Shown here in pieces: positions 1,617 to 9,715 of a stretch of 64,000 nucleotides of DNA. The stretch lies in contig JBKCUU010000047.1 of NCBI GenBank assembly GCA_046318155.1, positions 1 to 64,000 on the forward strand. The letters run 5' to 3'. Each line of letters begins with the position of its first letter. The stretch's first letter is position 1. Under the pieces are notes generated by a model. It was not told where the DNA came from. It was given only the letters and a program-made list of their open reading frames with translations, and ran no database searches. The translations under genes and the position numbers were made by a program. The DNA comes from Bdellovibrio sp. (GTDB lineage: Bacteria; Bdellovibrionota; Bdellovibrionia; Bdellovibrionales; Bdellovibrionaceae).

Positions 1617-2030
1617 TTAGGCCTCTGCGATGACTTTGAATTCAACGTGGATGGGGGTGGGCAGGGCTCCCACCTCAATCGTCGTCCGTGTAGCCTGAAT
1701 CGTTGAAAAGTGCTTGGCGTACACGGCATTGAACGCTTTGAAATCACGCTTCATGTCGGTGAGAAACACCTGCACGTCAACGATTTTTTCAAAACTGCTG
1801 CCCGATGCTTCAAGGATGTTTTTAATATTCTCAATAACCGATTCTGTCTGCACGGTGACGTCGTACCACTGCACATTGCCATTGACGTCTTTTTGCACTC
1901 CGGGGATGTCTGTCGTCCCGGGCTTACGCGGTCCTACGCCCGATAAAAACAAGAGCGAACCAACTTTGCGCGCATGGGGGTAAGCTCCTACAGGTTCGGG
2001 TGCTTTCTTGCTGTTGATAATCGTACTCAT
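1617..2030 (-). CDS. RidA/YjgF family protein, probable 2-aminomuconate deaminase
   Basis: APEPVGAYPHA, FNAVYAKHF, RTTIEV..LP...VEFKVIA; context with aminomuconate pathway genes. Confidence 0.88.
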   Translation of the reverse strand: MSTIINSKKAPEPVGAYPHARKVGSLLFLSGVGPRKPGTTDIPGVQKDVNGNVQWYDVTVQTESVIENIKNILEASGSSFEKIVDVQVFLTDMKRDFKAFNAVYAKHFSTIQATRTTIEVGALPTPIHVEFKVIAEA

Positions 2031-3109
2031 GGCAGCTCCACATCAAAGTACCAACGGTCATGATCAGGATCCCAATCATCCCACGTTGGAATTTTTTCTA
2101 AGGATGAAAGTAAACTTTCGGGAACAAGACCCGGGACTAAAAACGCTTTTTGCCGCCGCAAAGAATAGGGGTTGCGAAGCCCAAACCCTAGAGTTCCTAA
2201 AATTCCGCGCGCCACATACCACGTCGCCTGCGGATTCCAACCGTGGGCAATTTTGATCACGACGCCAAGCCCTTCGGGAAAATCCGGATGCTCAATCGCC
2301 ATCCCCAGTAAACCATCAGCACCTTCTTTGGCGATGACCTTACCTCCACAAGATTTCATGATCGTGGTATCAAGCCTGTTAAATCCCCCGACCAAATCGG
2401 GATGACGGATCATCGACTCCCAAATCCAGTCTTCATTTTTAGTTTGAGCTAAACCCGCATAGCACTGGGCCAGTTCTTTAACGGTCATCGACACCGTCGG
2501 CAAACCATCCCCATCACGCGCGATCCGAAGTGGCGCCCAGCTGCTGCCAAGATATCGGCGCACAACTTTGATGTACTCTTGAAAGACTTGGTGATTTGGC
2601 AGCGTATAACCCGCGCGGCTCCAACCTTTGAGCCGGCAACCCAGCAAGATACCCGCGTGATGACCCGAGGAGTTGTTGTACCAGCGCCTGGGACGGCGCA
2701 CTTGCCGGCCAAACTGCACCAAAGGCAAATCAAGAGGCGTTTGCATCAGGCCCCACTCGGACTCATTCAGCAAACTTTGCGAGGCTTCGACGTGTTCAGC
2801 GGCCCCGTTGTGAGACGAAACGCTGATGGCTTTTTGCGTCCAATCCGTTGTGGTCTCGAGCTCTTTCGAGAAGACCTTCATGTACATGAGCTTCATCATG
2901 CTTCGGCCGTAGCACAAAACATCACCGCCAAAAGAATGGACCAGCTTGTCGCCACTAAACCAGGCCACCGCGCCGTGAATGGTATTTTCACTCACACCAT
3001 TGCGGCGGTAATCCACCAAAGGCTCCCAGGCGACGTCACGTCCGGTCGGTAAACCCTTCACTTGATCCCCGAATGGACTCTTGGGGTAATTGCGAGAACC
3101 CGAAGTCAT
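2027..3109 (-). CDS. Class 3 (Rhizobium etli-type, asparaginase II) asparaginase homolog with substituted metal ligands
   Basis: RSMMK (RSxxK), SSHNG, NNSSGHHAG (cf. NCSGKH), RDGDGLP (cf. DGC), AKEGADG; ATGA overlaps with both neighbours. Confidence 0.8.
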   Translation of the reverse strand: MTSGSRNYPKSPFGDQVKGLPTGRDVAWEPLVDYRRNGVSENTIHGAVAWFSGDKLVHSFGGDVLCYGRSMMKLMYMKVFSKELETTTDWTQKAISVSSHNGAAEHVEASQSLLNESEWGLMQTPLDLPLVQFGRQVRRPRRWYNNSSGHHAGILLGCRLKGWSRAGYTLPNHQVFQEYIKVVRRYLGSSWAPLRIARDGDGLPTVSMTVKELAQCYAGLAQTKNEDWIWESMIRHPDLVGGFNRLDTTIMKSCGGKVIAKEGADGLLGMAIEHPDFPEGLGVVIKIAHGWNPQATWYVARGILGTLGFGLRNPYSLRRQKAFLVPGLVPESLLSSLEKIPTWDDWDPDHDRWYFDVELP

Positions 3110-4092
3110 GCCTCGTCCTCGTCTTGTAAGCCCGCATTCAGCGTTTGGCTGTTCATCCCGCGGCTCTCAGCCAGTGACGGCCCTAAGACATTGCGCTCAC
3201 CCGTATAAAACTCGGGCGAGTCTTCATCAAACTCGAGATCCCGCGCCGAGAACTCGGTCGGCACTAAACACACAACCGCACTTCCGGTTCCGCACACGGG
3301 CTCATAGGCCAAGACTTCACCCTTGTAGCGGTTGTGGGGACCAGCCACGGTCGACAACCACCAAAGTGGCTTGAAGTTGTTTACTTTTTTAACGCGAGCT
3401 TCTTTTTGAATTTGGCGCGAGAGCTGAGACAGATCCTCGAGCCGTCCTTTTTCAAAAAACTCGATCATTTTCAAATTCCACTCTTGGTCTTTGAGCGAGT
3501 GGATTTTGTCATTTTTGGGATCAATAAAAGTTTGATGCAATCGATTTGAAAGTGTCGAGATCACAATGGCCACGGCTTTTTTGTTTTGCTCTTTCAGCGC
3601 GTCGAGCGTGGCTTTCGCCAAAACCACGGTTTCGGCGCGGTCGGCATACATGTTCGAAGACAAAATCACCGCGGGCAAACGGTTCTCGGGATTCACAAGC
3701 TTCAAAGCGACGACCGAGCCCGTGTCGATCGGAAAGCCGTGATAATCAACTCCGCGCATATGCAGGCCGCGCTTTTCACCATGCGCGACGATTGCTTTGG
3801 CGATTTTGGAGTCCATGTTGAATTTGTAGGGAATGCTGCCCAGATCATGAAACTCTTCATCGACGTGCACCCATTCGCAAACTTCGCGGCACTGCACCTG
3901 ATGACCCAGCACTGAAGGCCACATCGTCGAGTAGATCAAAATGACCTCAGCCCCCGAAGATTCAATCTCGGCGCGCACCTTTTCAAAAGCTTGCCGAAGG
4001 TTACCATAACCCGGATTCGCCTCGGGCGTTAGAAGCGGCTGAGGCAATCCCGGAAGAACAAAACTTTTCACAACAAGATTTTGCGGGCTCAT
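3106..4092 (-). CDS. amnA: 2-aminophenol 1,6-dioxygenase alpha (non-catalytic) subunit, LigB family
   Basis: LigB fold, GFPIDTG motif, Fe-ligand His positions replaced (PGLPQP, STMW); ATGA-coupled to the beta subunit. Confidence 0.8.
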   Translation of the reverse strand: MSPQNLVVKSFVLPGLPQPLLTPEANPGYGNLRQAFEKVRAEIESSGAEVILIYSTMWPSVLGHQVQCREVCEWVHVDEEFHDLGSIPYKFNMDSKIAKAIVAHGEKRGLHMRGVDYHGFPIDTGSVVALKLVNPENRLPAVILSSNMYADRAETVVLAKATLDALKEQNKKAVAIVISTLSNRLHQTFIDPKNDKIHSLKDQEWNLKMIEFFEKGRLEDLSQLSRQIQKEARVKKVNNFKPLWWLSTVAGPHNRYKGEVLAYEPVCGTGSAVVCLVPTEFSARDLEFDEDSPEFYTGERNVLGPSLAESRGMNSQTLNAGLQDEDEA

Positions 4093-4973
4093 GTGAAATC
4101 CCTCCACTCGACAATCGCATTGCCGGTGCCGATAACGGTGCCATACGCGTGCACGACCGCTGGCTTGGTCGGAAAATTCATCGAGGCCAAGAGCCAGCTC
4201 AAGGCACCCGAGTCGGTTTCGGCTATGGCCTGCTCGGTAAAATCCGGAACCAAATCAAAAACTTGCTTGGACTTTCCGGCCTTGAACATTTCGATGAGCT
4301 TCATATCCCACAAATACTGGGAGTGGTTGTAGATATGTTCCTGGCTCATGTCTTCAGGCAGCGGCGGTTCTTTGGTAAAGTGGCGATGCGAGAGCGAGTT
4401 GCTGGCCAGCAAAACGACTTTTTTGCCGGACTTCTCGATCGCGGCCCGCGTGATTTTGGCGAGCGCGAGCATTTCTTCTTGCATCACATCCGGTGAAAAA
4501 TAAGCCGAAGCCGCATGACTGGACAAAGACACAATCGGCTTGTCCCATTTGGGATTGGCTAAATGACAAGAGACGATCGTGCCGTAGTCGATCCGGTAAT
4601 CCGGGTTCTGCATAAGCTTCATCGGAAACTTTGCCATTGAAGCTTCACGGGCTAAGGCTTCAGCCATGGCCACATCGACTTTGAGATCGTAGTGATAACG
4701 AAACAAATGCGGGAACACAGGGTCGACCGACAAACCTTTAAAGTGCGGATGCGCCAGCACGTGAGTGCCCACATAAGTGCGCCAATGCGGCGACAAGACC
4801 ATGATCATGTCATAATCAAGAGAAGCTAAATTTTGACGGAGTTTTTCGTAGCCCCATCTTAAAGTTTCCCAGCCCCCTTCGGCCTTGGCTTCGTTCTGCG
4901 GAGGGTTCTCGGCATACACCAAATGCGGGGGGTGCGGAGCCAAGGCTCCAAGCACGATCTTTCCTGTTGCCAT
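4089..4973 (-). CDS. amnB: 2-aminophenol 1,6-dioxygenase beta (catalytic) subunit, LigB family
   Basis: PHPPHLVYAENP, SPHW, IDYGT, SLSHRH, AETD and YGTVIGTGNA motifs of AmnB/CnbCb. Confidence 0.88.
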   Translation of the reverse strand: MATGKIVLGALAPHPPHLVYAENPPQNEAKAEGGWETLRWGYEKLRQNLASLDYDMIMVLSPHWRTYVGTHVLAHPHFKGLSVDPVFPHLFRYHYDLKVDVAMAEALAREASMAKFPMKLMQNPDYRIDYGTIVSCHLANPKWDKPIVSLSSHAASAYFSPDVMQEEMLALAKITRAAIEKSGKKVVLLASNSLSHRHFTKEPPLPEDMSQEHIYNHSQYLWDMKLIEMFKAGKSKQVFDLVPDFTEQAIAETDSGALSWLLASMNFPTKPAVVHAYGTVIGTGNAIVEWRDFT

Positions 4974-6415
4974 TATGATGTCCTCACACAGACCGTCGTG
5001 GTCTCGGTAAAAAAGTCGATCGAATGAATTCCGCCCTCGCGGCCGATCCCGCTGTGCTTCATTCCGCCAAAGGGCATTCGCAAATCACGGTGCAACCACG
5101 TGTTGATCCACACCGTGCCCACGCGCAACTCTCCTGCCATCTTTTGGGCCTTGCTTAAGTTTTCGGTCCAAACAGTCGCCGACAAACCGTACTTCACGTC
5201 GTTGGCTTTTTGCACAACTTCTTCAATCGAATCAAAGGCATGAATCGTCACGACGGGGCCAAAAATTTCTTCTTGCACGCAGCGGGAGTCTTGCGCCAAT
5301 CCCGACAAAACCGTGGGCCTCAGCCAAAAGCCCTGCTGCAAGTCCCCGCTCATCAAAGGAACGGTGCCGCCCGCTTCAATGCGGCCACCTTCGCTGACGG
5401 CAAGATCGATATAGGACCGAACCTTTTCCCAGTGCGCTTTAGAAACCAAAGGCCCCATGAAACTTTTGTCACTGCGAGGATCACCCACCGTGAGTTTCTC
5501 AGTCTCGGCGACAAATTGTTTCACGAAAGAATCATAGATCGAGCGCTCGACATAAATGCGCGAGCCGCACAGACAAATTTCGCCTTGATTTAAAAAGCTC
5601 GACCGCAAGGTCATCGCGAGCGCTTTTTTCAAATCGGCATCGGCAAAAATAATGTTTGGATTTTTGCCGCCAAGTTCGAGCGAAACTTTTTTAAAATGTT
5701 CGGCCGAAGCTTCTAAAATCTTTCGGCCGGTGGCGGTGCCCCCGGTAAACGAGATGAGCGGAACATCGGGATGGCGCACCAGCGCATCGCCCGCTTCGTG
5801 GCCCAAGCCATAAACGATATTCAAAACTCCGGCAGGCAATCCGGCTTCAACACAAACATCCGCAAGCAAGTCGGCCGTCATCGAGGTCATCTCAGACGGT
5901 TTGCAAACCACGGTGTTCCCACAGGCCAGCGCCGGCGCAATTTTCCAGGTCAGCAAATACAAAGGCAAATTCCAAGGCGAGATCAATCCGGCCACGCCGA
6001 CAGGCTTGCGGCTGACATAGTTAAGCGTGTGCGCATCCGTCGTCGACTCCTCTTCTTGCGCCAAAATCACTTGCGCGAAAAAACGAAAGTTCAGGACCGC
6101 TCGGCTGATATCCATCGAAGCCGCTAAATGGACGGGCTTGCCTTGGTCTTGGCTTTCGAGCCGGGCAAATTCATCCGCACGAGCTTCAATCAAATCAGCA
6201 ATCTTGAGCAAGAACTTTGAACGCTCCGCCGCTGACGTGCGCGACCACGAGGCAAAGGCTTGGTGGGCCGAGGTCACGGCCGCATTCACATCTTGCTTTG
6301 ACCCTCTGGCCAAAAAAGAGAAGACTTGTCCTGTCGCGGGATTCACGTTTTCGAGAAATTGCCCACCCAATGGAGAGGTTTTTTTCGCATGAATAAAATG
6401 AAGAATTTTTTGCAT
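4973..6415 (-). CDS. amnC: 2-aminomuconate/2-hydroxymuconate semialdehyde dehydrogenase (ALDH8-like)
   Basis: ISPWNLPLYLLTWKIAPA, ELGGKNP, NQGEICLCGSR, EEIFGPV, RDLRMPFGGMKHSGIGREGG. Confidence 0.9.
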   Translation of the reverse strand: MQKILHFIHAKKTSPLGGQFLENVNPATGQVFSFLARGSKQDVNAAVTSAHQAFASWSRTSAAERSKFLLKIADLIEARADEFARLESQDQGKPVHLAASMDISRAVLNFRFFAQVILAQEEESTTDAHTLNYVSRKPVGVAGLISPWNLPLYLLTWKIAPALACGNTVVCKPSEMTSMTADLLADVCVEAGLPAGVLNIVYGLGHEAGDALVRHPDVPLISFTGGTATGRKILEASAEHFKKVSLELGGKNPNIIFADADLKKALAMTLRSSFLNQGEICLCGSRIYVERSIYDSFVKQFVAETEKLTVGDPRSDKSFMGPLVSKAHWEKVRSYIDLAVSEGGRIEAGGTVPLMSGDLQQGFWLRPTVLSGLAQDSRCVQEEIFGPVVTIHAFDSIEEVVQKANDVKYGLSATVWTENLSKAQKMAGELRVGTVWINTWLHRDLRMPFGGMKHSGIGREGGIHSIDFFTETTTVCVRTS

Positions 6416-6523
6416 CGGCCACAGTCTTTGAGAGCCACAGGATTTCGTCAAGAAAGAACCCTGTTTTCATTGGGAGAACGCTTCGGCTTGACCCCTCTGG
6501 CAGACTCTTCGAAGATTCTAGTC

Positions 6524-7744
6524 ATGATGATAACTCTTGTCCTCTCGATTTTGATTTCAGCTTGCGCGTCGGCCCCGGTGGAGATGCAACCTTCAGCGCG
6601 CCGCGCCGAGCTTTTCCCACTGATGAACCCACCCCTGCTCAGCGCCGAGAGCGAGGTGGCCCTGGGCGGCTTTTCGGCTTTGGCCTATGACGGCGTGGAT
6701 GCTGAAGGATCGCACGTCTTTTGGGCGACGACCGACCGTGGCCCCAATGCACCCAGCTATGAACAAGACAAGAAAAAGGACCAAGAGTTTCGCCCTTTTT
6801 TGATTCCTGATTTTCAGCCCACCTGGGTCAAGTTTAAACTGAACAAAGCGACCCGCCAAATCGAAGTGCTGTCGCAAACGCCACTCACCACGTCGAATGG
6901 CAAACCCCTGACCGGTCTTCCCAACCTCGAACAGAGCAAAAAGCATCCCGGCGATGAAATCCCCGTCAACACCAAAGGTGAAGTCATCGCGATGGATTTG
7001 ATGGGTTTGGACACCGAGGGTTTTTGCATTGATCAAAAAAACTTTGTCTGGATGGTCGAGGAGTACCGACCCTCGATCTTGAAGTTTGATCGCGATGGCA
7101 AACTTCTTCGTCGCTACGTCCCCATGGGATCTTTTGGTGTGCGCGAAATTAAAATGATCGATGCCGAGTACGGACGTGATTTGGTTCAGCAATCTTTGCC
7201 AAAAGAATTGAGTGATCGCAAACGCAACCGCGGCTTTGAGGGCGTGGCCTGCTTTAAAAACAAAGTCTACGCCATCATGCAAAGCCCTCTCAAAGGCGAA
7301 GGCAATAAAGTACGCTTGATCGAATTTGATCCCGAGAAAGAAGAAGTCAGCCGGGAGCTTGTCTATAAACTCCAAGACAAGGAGCAAGCCGATAAACTTG
7401 GCGACCTCACCACCGATGGCCACACACTTTACGCCATTGAACAAAATGGCGAGACCGGCAAGAACAGCATTCACCAGGTCTATAAAGTCACGCTGCCGGA
7501 CGAAAAATCAAAAGACCTCGAAGTTCAAAAAGAACTCTTTGTGGATCTTGTCAAAATGGGCTTCTCGGCTTTTGAAAAGGTCGAAGGGCTTGCGTTTGTC
7601 AGCCCCAATGTTTTAGCGGTTGTGAGTGATAATGACTTTGGCTTGACCGGATCGCTGAACTTAAAAACAGGACTCGTTCCGATGGGCACAGCAAAACGCA
7701 CGACCTTGGGACTTATCCCAGTCGCGGCGCCACCTGCTCCATAA
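6524..7744 (+). CDS. Esterase-like activity of phytase family lipoprotein (beta-propeller)
   Basis: Lipobox ISAC; GGFSAL, TDRGPN, DTEG, EEYRPSI, NRGFEG, KVEGLA, SDNDFG motifs. Confidence 0.85.
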   Translation: MMITLVLSILISACASAPVEMQPSARRAELFPLMNPPLLSAESEVALGGFSALAYDGVDAEGSHVFWATTDRGPNAPSYEQDKKKDQEFRPFLIPDFQPTWVKFKLNKATRQIEVLSQTPLTTSNGKPLTGLPNLEQSKKHPGDEIPVNTKGEVIAMDLMGLDTEGFCIDQKNFVWMVEEYRPSILKFDRDGKLLRRYVPMGSFGVREIKMIDAEYGRDLVQQSLPKELSDRKRNRGFEGVACFKNKVYAIMQSPLKGEGNKVRLIEFDPEKEEVSRELVYKLQDKEQADKLGDLTTDGHTLYAIEQNGETGKNSIHQVYKVTLPDEKSKDLEVQKELFVDLVKMGFSAFEKVEGLAFVSPNVLAVVSDNDFGLTGSLNLKTGLVPMGTAKRTTLGLIPVAAPPAP

Positions 7745-8939
7745 AGATTCGCATTGAGGCCTTCACGGCCTCGTTGTCGTGATTGTTAAAATCAAACCAC
7801 AGCATCAGTCGGTCTTCGGGGTGGTACTTGGCTTTGATGAGCTCAGTCACCTGAGCCGCATTCCCCGCAATCGTATTTGAGACGGCCGATGCGACCTTGG
7901 CGGGATCCAGCGTTTTCTCCATCGCTTTCCAATAATTTTCCCACGCACGCTTGGCTTGTGCTTTGGCCCGCTGGCTTTGTTCAGGAGGTGAAAGCCCTGG
8001 CGTCTCGTCTAAAAACAGCAGCACCGTTCGTGGCATCAGGTCTCGGCGCCAAGCACCGCCGTCTTTGTGATAGTGCTGCCGCATCCGCGCGTGCGTGTCT
8101 TCGATGACCTTTTCGGGTGTAATCGAAAGATTAAAGACACCAACAGGAAAAAACTGATTCGCTGCAATTTGCACTTCGGGATCATGCGAACCCAAAGTTA
8201 AGCGCAAGTTTTCAAGCGGCGCTTGAAACGGAATGACGCCAACTTTATCAAATGTCCAGTGACATGCGAGCGGGATCTTTTCGCGCTTGGGTCCCCCCGT
8301 TTGCTTTTGATCGGCACTTTGCACGCGGTCCCATTGTGCCGGGTCACGAAAATCCTGAGCTTGAAGAAACTGAATCGAAACATCTTTCGACGCCAATTTC
8401 TCCCCGCCCAAGAAACGTAAAAAGATCTCGGCCCCTTGAGCAAAATACTTATTCTTGATGACGTCCCAACCGGCTTTTTCAAGCTCGGTGCGAGCGACCA
8501 TCCCATACGGGGTGTTCGAAAACGGAAAGCGTCCTGCGGCAAACCCCAGTTCAAGCTTGCGTTTTGCAGATGACTGAAAAGAGTTGAGCATTAAAAAAGT
8601 CCGCACGGCCTCGGCATGGGCGATGGGCCCACCGTTACAGACAATATTTCGAATCGCAGAGCCGACATTGATTCGTTTTGTCTGTGAAAAAAGCAAATGT
8701 GCCACTTGCAGGATGTCGGTATTCAGTCCGATCTCGCCTTTAAAGTGCGGAATGACGGCGTCGGCGTTTTCTTTTTGAACTTGGCAGGACAGGTGAGTCT
8801 CGGCCACCCAAGCGGTTTCGTAACCCAGCTCATCGGCGAGGCGAGCTTGATCAAAAAAACTTTCAAACATTTGTCTTTCACTCGGCGTAAAACCGTCAAC
8901 TTCCGTTTGGCAAATCGAGAGAAAGACATCAAATTTCAT
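7713..8939 (-). CDS. LLM-class (luciferase-like) flavin-dependent monooxygenase
   Basis: ARLADELGYETAWVAETH, TKRINVGSA, LELGFAAG, C-terminal SMRIFMEQVAP. Confidence 0.88.
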   Translation of the reverse strand: MKFDVFLSICQTEVDGFTPSERQMFESFFDQARLADELGYETAWVAETHLSCQVQKENADAVIPHFKGEIGLNTDILQVAHLLFSQTKRINVGSAIRNIVCNGGPIAHAEAVRTFLMLNSFQSSAKRKLELGFAAGRFPFSNTPYGMVARTELEKAGWDVIKNKYFAQGAEIFLRFLGGEKLASKDVSIQFLQAQDFRDPAQWDRVQSADQKQTGGPKREKIPLACHWTFDKVGVIPFQAPLENLRLTLGSHDPEVQIAANQFFPVGVFNLSITPEKVIEDTHARMRQHYHKDGGAWRRDLMPRTVLLFLDETPGLSPPEQSQRAKAQAKRAWENYWKAMEKTLDPAKVASAVSNTIAGNAAQVTELIKAKYHPEDRLMLWFDFNNHDNEAVKASMRIFMEQVAPRLG

Positions 8940-9715
8940 AATGACGGCGTCCGTCCACCATCAACAGGAACGTTAATGCCCGAGATGTACGAAGCCGCGG
9001 GGCTCGCCAAAAATGCGATGGCTTCGGCCATTTCACGAGGCTCGCCAATGCGCCCAAGCGGAACAACAGATTTCCACTGCGATTCAATTTGCGATTCGGG
9101 AACTTGCTGCTTTTGAGCCGCAGCTCCGCGCAAAGAATCAAATCGTGAGGTGCGAATGAATCCGGGCAAAACATTATTGACAGTGACGCCAAACACGCCG
9201 ACTTCACCCGCCAATGTCTTGGCCCAATTGGCCATCGCGGCACGGGTTGTATTTGAAACACCCAGACCCGAGATGGGGGCTTTCACCGAAGTCGAGATCA
9301 CATTGATGATGCGTCCGTAAGACTTGGATTTCATACTGGGTAAAATTGTCTGCACAATCAGATGGGCCGCCAAAACGTGCGCGCGGATGGCGCCTTCAAA
9401 TTCATTGATGTCCGCATCAATCAAAGCGCCGCCTTTGGGTCCGCCTGAGTTGTTCACTAAAATGGTGACTCCCATTTGAGCAAGCTTTGGAAGAACTGCT
9501 TTTTTTAAAGACTCAAGGTCCGAAAGATCGGCCGAGATGACTTCGTGGCCAGTGCCGGGCAAGCGGCTTTTGAGTTCATCAAGTCGGTCCCTGTTGCGCG
9601 CCAGTAAGACCACTTGAGCTCCACGTTCGGCAAGCAAGAGCGAGGTCGCCTCGCCGATGCCTTGAGAAGCCCCGCACACCAGGGCTTTATGTCCCTTAAG
9701 ATCAAATGAATTCAT
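8936..9715 (-). CDS. SDR family oxidoreductase
   Basis: GASQGIG, ILVNNSGGP, SNTTR (atypical YxxxK site), YISGINVPVDGG. Confidence 0.9.
   Translation of the reverse strand: MNSFDLKGHKALVCGASQGIGEATSLLLAERGAQVVLLARNRDRLDELKSRLPGTGHEVISADLSDLESLKKAVLPKLAQMGVTILVNNSGGPKGGALIDADINEFEGAIRAHVLAAHLIVQTILPSMKSKSYGRIINVISTSVKAPISGLGVSNTTRAAMANWAKTLAGEVGVFGVTVNNVLPGFIRTSRFDSLRGAAAQKQQVPESQIESQWKSVVPLGRIGEPREMAEAIAFLASPAASYISGINVPVDGGRTPSL

Follow-up and report, generated by a model that had tools for sequence, protein, structure and literature searches.

A class-3 asparaginase homolog with replaced zinc ligands in a putative tryptophan-to-2-aminophenol gene cluster of Bdellovibrio, other bacteria and marine archaea

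The gene cluster and the asparaginase homolog P0001

The window, i.e., the whole stretch of 64,000 nucleotides of Bdellovibrio sp. DNA analyzed here, carries a minus-strand cluster in which genes for a short-chain dehydrogenase/reductase (SDR), a luciferase-like monooxygenase (LLM), an aldehyde dehydrogenase, AmnB- and AmnA-like proteins, the asparaginase homolog P0001, and a RidA-family protein follow one another in this order (Table 1). A phytase-like gene on the opposite strand, located between the LLM and aldehyde dehydrogenase genes, splits the cluster; it is present in 3 of the 81 loci compared below. The SDR is assigned to a likely late step because an SDR is also found in canonical kynureninase clusters. 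As no close solved relative of the LLM was found (best E 4e-7), its reaction type represents a guess among oxygenations. Counting against the route proposed below, the cluster contains no flavin reductase gene, and a search of the window's genome for PF01613 gave no match, although PF03358 and nitroreductases do occur there.

Table 1. Genes of the cluster and motifs of P0001, by position in the window
Feature	Positions	Strand	Remarks
SDR	8936..9715	minus	likely late step
LLM (PF00296), uncharacterised family	7713..8939	minus	predicted oxygen insertion on kynurenine
Phytase-like esterase gene (PF13449)	6326..7744	plus	true start probably well downstream of 6326
Aldehyde dehydrogenase, nearest 2-hydroxymuconic semialdehyde dehydrogenase (AmnC-like)	4973..6451	minus	true start maybe few codons downstream
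AmnB-like 2-aminophenol 1,6-dioxygenase beta subunit	4089..4973	minus	8IHG 348, 3VSG 345, 7TXY 340 bits
AmnA-like LigB-family alpha subunit	3106..4107	minus	stop overlaps P0001 gene start by 4 bases
P0001, class-3 asparaginase homolog, 360 aa	2027..3109	minus	likely beta-aspartyl-aryl hydrolase
P0001 R69-S70-x-x-K73	2891..2905	minus	substrate-carboxylate Arg, nucleophile Ser, first Ser-Lys tandem (= ReAV R47, S48, K51); roles as given in the accessible part of PMC12292245
P0001 S99	2813..2815	minus	Ser of second tandem (= ReAV S80)
P0001 N145-N-S147-S-G-H150-H151	2657..2677	minus	S147/H150 stand for Zn ligands C135/K138
P0001 D199-G200-D201	2507..2515	minus	D199 = ReAV D187, kept; D201 stands for Zn ligand C189
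P0001 K261-E-G-A-D265	2315..2329	minus	Lys of second tandem (= ReAV K263); Asp = ReAV D267
RidA-family protein (AmnD-like 2-aminomuconate deaminase)	1617..2030	minus	start overlaps P0001 gene stop by 4 bases

The initial annotation had described P0001 as a class-3 asparaginase homolog, and this assignment holds: P0001 matched the Pfam model PF06089 (Asparaginase_II) with 159.9 bits against a curated cut-off of 25, and the closest solved structures in a sequence search were ReAIV (8CLY, E 4e-17), followed by ReAV. None of the NCBIfam models matched P0001, nor did PF04199 or TIGR03035, which represent the KynB cyclase family. The predicted model (mean pLDDT 80.4), built from a 13-row alignment and weak at residues 1-25 and at residues 124-144, which adjoin the active site, superimposed on ReAV and ReAIV with TM scores of 0.63-0.67 (Foldseek, E 3e-17); beta-lactamase-like hydrolases scored far lower in the same fold search. 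P0001 shares with these Rhizobium etli-type class-3 enzymes the fold, both Ser-Lys tandems (S70/K73 and S99/K261), and the substrate-positioning Arg and Asp (R69 and D199, equivalent to ReAV Arg47 and Asp187), yet it is only 21-26% identical to them in structural alignments, has an additional conserved loop as well as a Trp/Asp-rich C-terminal tail that are characteristic of its own family, and lacks their Cys135/Lys138/Cys189 Zn site. Its motifs read R69-S70-M-M-K73, S98-S99-H100, N146-S147-S148-G149-H150-H151, D199-G200-D201, and A260-K261-E-G-A-D265-G; S147, H150, and D201 align opposite the Cys and the Lys of NCSGKH and the Cys of DGC, respectively. Both the retention of RSMMK, SSH, and AKEGADG and the replacement of NCSGKH by NSSGHH and of DGC by DGD (i.e., Cys>Ser, Lys>His, and Cys>Asp) were thus correctly annotated.

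The replaced residues are conserved in their own right. In the query and the best 120 of 1640 homologs, every tandem residue as well as S147 and D201 was found in 121/121 sequences, and H150 in 118/121 (Gln in 3); the Ser/His/Asp combination hence represents neither chance nor a sequencing error. The anchor residues E41, R69, D199, T205, and D265 are invariant across the stand-alone family. Decay to a pseudogene, which had also been discounted initially, is ruled out by an open reading frame uninterrupted by stops, by comparison with homolog L001 (325/360 residues identical; dN 0.070, dS 1.56), and by the highest conservation in the cluster (median 79% for the hydrolase gene vs. 51-65% for the others, 81 loci). 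Judged by its sequence, P0001 is an intact serine hydrolase of the class-3 asparaginase fold without the Cys/Lys/Cys zinc ligands. A promoter and terminator scan gave results close to shuffled levels (9 vs. 5.1 and 20 vs. 15.0).

The initially proposed link to amnAB was borne out: among the best 80 of 447 loci plus the window (n=81, many contigs ending early), amnA was a cluster neighbor in 71, amnB in 66, the aldehyde dehydrogenase gene in 62, ridA in 58, the LLM gene in 55, and the SDR gene in 47. According to database labels, the best 80 loci span, among other groups, Bdellovibrionota, marine Thermoplasmatota, Myxococcales, and Acidobacteriota; the labels of L051, L016, L019, L021, and L025 (Streptomyces griseus, Enterobacteriaceae, Alphaproteobacteria, Rickettsiales) are ill-matched to gene content or genome size in these MAGs and may be wrong. 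Several genomes have TDO inside the locus and others KynB, and in two separate lineages KynB is fused to the asparaginase domain. Such Asparaginase-II/KynB fusions (L093:8214-9815, L096:7134-8732, and other f10 and f22 genomes) lie beside TDO and accompany either LLM and AmnAB or KynU, KMO, and HAO; P0322 is a second fusion of this kind on a different branch of the tree. In several lineages, AmnA and the RidA deaminase form a single fusion protein (L100:3737-5140, L102:3232-4515, L022:11826-13271). Marine archaea differ in the gene that lies upstream of the cluster, which codes for an alpha/beta hydrolase, a formyltransferase-like protein, or else a TPR protein (L022:2359-3105; L066:5138-5884; L017-L020 at ~5837); the alpha/beta hydrolase is a possible stand-in formamidase.

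Zinc-site residues among relatives

The Zn ion of ReAV is described, in the accessible parts of three papers (PMC8602277, PMC12951835, PMC12292245), as a non-catalytic substrate anchor. This role follows from the retention of kcat after chelator treatment (PMC8602277) together with mutant behavior, C135A, C189A, and D187A being inactive and K138A slow (PMC11024299). The ReAV literature, as far as its accessible text goes, holds that the Zn cysteines are strictly conserved and that Ala mutants at these positions are dead, and reports 97-99% conservation of Zn-site and tandem residues in orthologs (PMC11024299, section 4.1). Since C135A and C189A are inactive, a functional Zn-free site would require a compensating change.

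Across 160 loci, the ligand triad was Ser/His/Asp in 62, Ser/Gln/Asp in 2, Cys/Glu/Cys in 87, and Cys/Lys/Cys in 9, and the LLM was present in all 9 loci of the last type. The initial annotation had taken the ligand change as a sign of re-purposing; with Cys/Glu/Cys and Cys/Lys/Cys orthologs in the same cluster, this argument falls, and the Cys/Lys/Cys orthologs, which had been named as evidence against it, do occur in the same context in a minority of loci. The two cysteine positions change together: among 368 protein records (310 homologs including the query, and 58 of 150 representatives with ≥260 aa), 226 were Cys/Cys, 139 Ser/Asp, none mixed, and 3 gapped or fragmentary. Position 145 follows the same division, with His in 273/273 Cys-keeping and Asn in 204/206 Cys-free sequences among 479 stand-alone rows (locus copies counted in). 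By contrast, position 150 varies within the 206 Cys-free rows (His 188, Gln 17, Val 1) and is Asn in one further, distant Cys-free row.

The NSSGHH/DGD proteins had also been expected to form a clade tied to amnAB. They do belong to a conserved, amnAB-linked lineage; they do not form a single clade, and a lone Cys-free clade marking a new function was rejected, as P0180 (Ser/Val/Asp) falls amid Cys-keeping rows and three nested Cys-free/Cys-keeping sets are seen. The placement of P0180 was obtained with the motif columns omitted (AU p 0.036), and a sliding identity comparison over residues 148-218 revealed no recombination tract. P0180 is a lone record with no relative above 71% identity, and a genome-locus search gave no match above 69%. 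In a 40-row mixture-model tree, three changes between the Cys-free and Cys-keeping states were recovered in 200/200 bootstrap trees, one of the three resting on a single record. With regard to direction, one tree, which carried a long-branch warning, nested Ser/His/Asp within Cys/Glu/Cys, and two other trees placed Cys-free rows basally with cysteines regained. Zinc-sparing by habitat was not supported as an explanation, as the marine archaeal orthologs examined retain both cysteines.

On the tree, the site changed between the Cys/x/Cys and Ser/x/Asp states at least three times. Because close relatives in the same cluster retain the zinc site, the swap is likely a reversible two-state variant and not the cause of a new role. 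In the Cys/x/Cys state, the alpha-amino acid end of the substrate would be held via Zn; in the Ser/x/Asp state, the same end would probably be held without metal, with Asp201 as the partner of the alpha-ammonium group and Arg69 as that of the alpha-carboxylate. Gln, Val, and Asn at position 150 suggest such a metal-free anchor over a re-tuned metal site and weaken the earlier claim that the replacement residues could still bind metal. Nevertheless, His150, His151, Asp199, and Asp201 are possible ligands, and ReAV K138H has been crystallized with L-Asn (9G67, among the fold-search matches), so that Ser/His/Asp might form a re-tuned Zn, Mn, or Fe site that uses Asp201, Asp199, and histidines. 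We regard this as unlikely, though with an appreciable chance, given the tolerance of position 150 and the replacement of His145 by Asn in nearly all Cys-free rows; it concerns the metal question only and is compatible with the route preferred below. If the metal-free reading is true, P0001 would represent a version of the catalytic center of ReAV that nature has built without zinc; the paired cysteine swap also makes the role of Zn directly testable with matched natural pairs at 70-74% identity.

Genome content and a proposed route from kynurenine to 2-aminophenol

The window's genome (95% complete) carries TDO and a separate KynB-like gene (contig C11); kynureninase (KynU), KMO, HAO, and ACMSD were not found in it. 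For the AmnE/AmnF lower pathway, a tblastn search of this genome with a hydratase/decarboxylase-family query gave no match; hydratase/decarboxylase genes of the lower pathway occur in some relatives. The genome also encodes a separate, canonical class-3 asparaginase (G000:C33:7018-8019, i.e., L137; RSAIK/NCSGKH/DGC; 333 bits) and has no match to class 1 or class 2 asparaginase.

Among 201 genomes of the phylum, 14 carry the stand-alone hydrolase family (≥61% identity) and 26 a sister form of ~530 aa; all 8 sister forms scanned are fusions of the asparaginase domain with KynB. The LLM was found in 31 of the 201 genomes, i.e., all 14 with the stand-alone form and 17 of the 26 with the fused form, so that the hydrolase was present in 31/31 LLM carriers. 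TDO was detected in 30 of these 31 genomes; kynureninase, which is over the cut-off in 43/201 phylum genomes, and HAO were detected in none, and KMO only as weak KMO-like matches in 2 (30-33%). The 9 fusion genomes without the LLM all carry KynU, KMO, and HAO, and the swap between the LLM and these three enzymes accounts for three changes on a tree of 22 full-length fusions. The Fisher p of 3e-7 among 126 TDO-positive phylum genomes is overstated, since kin are not independent. Of the same 126 genomes, 52, including 11/11 of genus g4, lack both kynureninase and the LLM route; absence of KynU alone is hence not distinctive. A second set comprised 50 of the 80 genomes with a locus, of which at least 3 recur from the phylum sample; KynU was over the cut-off in none of the 50, and TDO was found in 47. 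For 40 of them, KMO was found in none and HAO in one. An ortholog of P0001 was found in 149/151 genomes of the marine Poseidoniales-type archaeal order to which L018 belongs; 3 of the 151 have kynureninase, a lone kynureninase (L239-L241), and all 3 also have the ortholog.

AmnB was found in 25 of the 31 genomes with LLM and hydrolase; it is absent from five genomes of one genus and from a single-contig genome that is 99% complete and has LLM and hydrolase adjacent. The tightest unit is therefore the LLM with the hydrolase, and this pair would act upstream of ring cleavage. Locus L099:7693-9975 (G105) and genus g49 have LLM and hydrolase without AmnB; such organisms would recover aspartate and give off 2-aminophenol.

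Kynurenine equals asparagine with an aminophenyl ring in place of the amide nitrogen. The products of TDO and KynB, whose genes are present, would together yield kynurenine, and its conversion to 2-aminophenol would require one oxygen and departure of the aspartyl group. We propose that the LLM inserts oxygen between ring and ketone in a Baeyer-Villiger-type reaction, which would give the 2-aminophenyl ester of aspartate; this ester may rearrange to the anilide N4-(2-hydroxyphenyl)-asparagine, a shift for which we found no description in the literature. Either compound would suit a Ser-Lys hydrolase that retains the amino-acid anchor residues. Ser70, which is fully conserved, would attack the side-chain carbonyl as ReAV Ser48 does, and 2-aminophenol would then pass, by homology, to AmnAB, aldehyde dehydrogenase, RidA, and SDR. 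On the basis of gene content, we give about an even chance to the core of this proposal, i.e., that kynurenine is oxidized by the LLM, giving a beta-aspartyl-2-aminophenol ester or anilide from which P0001 frees aspartate and 2-aminophenol; the aryl-amide or aryl-ester hydrolase suggested by the initial annotation thus continues to be the best reading.

Two readings that involve C-C cleavage agree with much of the genome profile and to that extent count against this preferred reading. If the LLM made 3-hydroxykynurenine, P0001 could cleave the aryl-carbonyl bond directly, in a retro-Friedel-Crafts type of reaction that again gives aspartate and 2-aminophenol. Such cleavage is consistent with all profile results, including the genomes without AmnB, and the ortho-amino group would aid protonation of the ring carbon. 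We nevertheless find it rather improbable, because the Ser-Lys machinery and the solved relatives belong to amide and ester hydrolases, for which a carbon leaving group is harder; in addition, the enzymes that usually hydroxylate the ring of kynurenine, KMO for instance, are single-component FAD enzymes. Alternatively, AmnAB might open the ring of 3-hydroxykynurenine before P0001 removes aspartate as a meta-cleavage-type C-C hydrolase. This order would fit the position of the P0001 gene directly after amnA and the presence of amnA in 59/62 Ser/His/Asp loci, and it is difficult to reconcile with the six AmnB-less genomes, with the 81 Cys/Glu/Cys loci identified by pattern, in 72 of which it is the LLM, not AmnB, that is present, and with the similarity of AmnB (340-348 bits) to enzymes for unsubstituted or chloro 2-aminophenol; the chance that it applies seems small.

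The initial annotation had also named formylkynurenine as a candidate substrate. An aryl formamidase acting on N-formylkynurenine or another N-formyl intermediate would explain why KynB was not found in 10 marine archaeal genomes examined, and loss of the Zn anchor might fit a different substrate pose. KynB-like genes are, however, present in 14/14 phylum-sample genomes with the stand-alone enzyme and in 52/64 genomes examined, at times within the cluster itself or as a fusion, which makes formylkynurenine an unlikely substrate; the archaeal orthologs retain the cysteines, the alpha/beta hydrolase upstream of one archaeal locus might fill the KynB gap, and the step from kynurenine to aminophenol would be left unexplained. 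We thus hold formamidase activity to be highly improbable.

Another reading, of P0001 as an ordinary L-asparaginase that has lost its dependence on zinc and is carried along with the cluster, draws on the retained catalytic residues, the kcat kept by chelator-treated ReAV (as reported in the accessible text of the source cited above), and the lack of class 1 and class 2 matches in the genome. The fused domain, too, persists without the LLM: in kynureninase genomes lacking the LLM, the fused Cys/Lys/Cys domain is intact and evolves no faster. Relaxed selection was looked for there and not found (distance ratio 1.42 vs. 1.32 between genera and 1.22 vs. 1.28 within), which counts against the preferred reading and indicates an LLM-independent job in that branch; the domain may serve there as an asparaginase, either an ordinary one or one with a dual function. 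For P0001, this explanation appears very improbable in view of the canonical class-3 enzyme in the same genome, the co-occurrence with the LLM in 31/31 genomes, the near-universal retention of the gene by archaea inside the cluster, and the conserved family-specific loop and tail.

Building on the preferred Baeyer-Villiger reading, a wider scenario can be formulated, which we rate as tentative, at somewhat under an even chance: a PLP-free tryptophan route that belongs to the core of marine Poseidoniales archaea and has also spread among predatory bacteria, in which a flavin Baeyer-Villiger enzyme and a re-purposed class-3 asparaginase would cut kynurenine to aspartate and 2-aminophenol, the hydrolase having alternated, on at least three occasions, between a site anchored by Zn (Cys/x/Cys) and one free of metal (Ser/x/Asp).

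Relation to described enzymes and pathways

Compared with ReAIV and ReAV, P0001 differs in genomic setting, as it is encoded in an aromatic catabolic cluster with a canonical copy elsewhere in the same genome; it is a variant member of the PF06089 fold family inside a probably new pathway. The bacterial kynurenine pathway (KMO, kynureninase, HAO, ACMSD) shares its start (TDO, KynB) and its end (semialdehyde dehydrogenase, RidA, SDR) with the proposed route in sister genomes, whereas LLM, hydrolase, and AmnAB would replace the four middle enzymes, and aspartate would be freed instead of alanine and CO2. With the meta-cleavage pathway for 2-aminophenol (AmnAB, AmnC, AmnD; 8IHG, 3VSG; ARO microcompartment, 7TXY), the cluster has in common, by homology, an AmnB-like subunit, the alpha subunit, the semialdehyde dehydrogenase, and a RidA-type deaminase; here, LLM and hydrolase would furnish 2-aminophenol from tryptophan. 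Known 2-aminophenol loci handle nitrobenzene-type substrates or, in the case of the ARO locus, start from a precursor that is stated to be unknown (PMC10470539, accessible text), and the main text of that paper contains no match to asparaginase, luciferase, tryptophan, or kynuren-. If true, the proposed route would provide a natural source of 2-aminophenol for dioxygenases known from pollutant degraders.

A precedent for the ketone-to-ester step exists among luciferase-like Baeyer-Villiger monooxygenases of the PF00296 fold, e.g., the diketocamphane monooxygenases and the progesterone LLM of Caenibius tardaugens, the latter with such oxidation documented (PMC12239570, accessible part); the cluster LLM belongs to a separate family without a close solved member, and its reaction is predicted only. 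Our literature comparison, which also covered the accessible parts of PMC9500103, PMC10917881, PMC13451416, and bioRxiv 10.64898/2026.06.05.730449, was judged by titles and abstract openings, with most subscription journals outside its scope; within it, we found no description of an LLM/hydrolase route or of a Cys-free class-3 enzyme. The supplements of PMC9500103 may class such proteins as type AIV or AV. Gene content and this comparison suggest that a tryptophan route via such a cluster is likely undescribed. The P0001 gene would likely encode a middle step of this route in almost every genome sampled from an abundant order of marine archaea as well as in many predatory bacteria; databases annotate its orthologs as 'asparaginase'.
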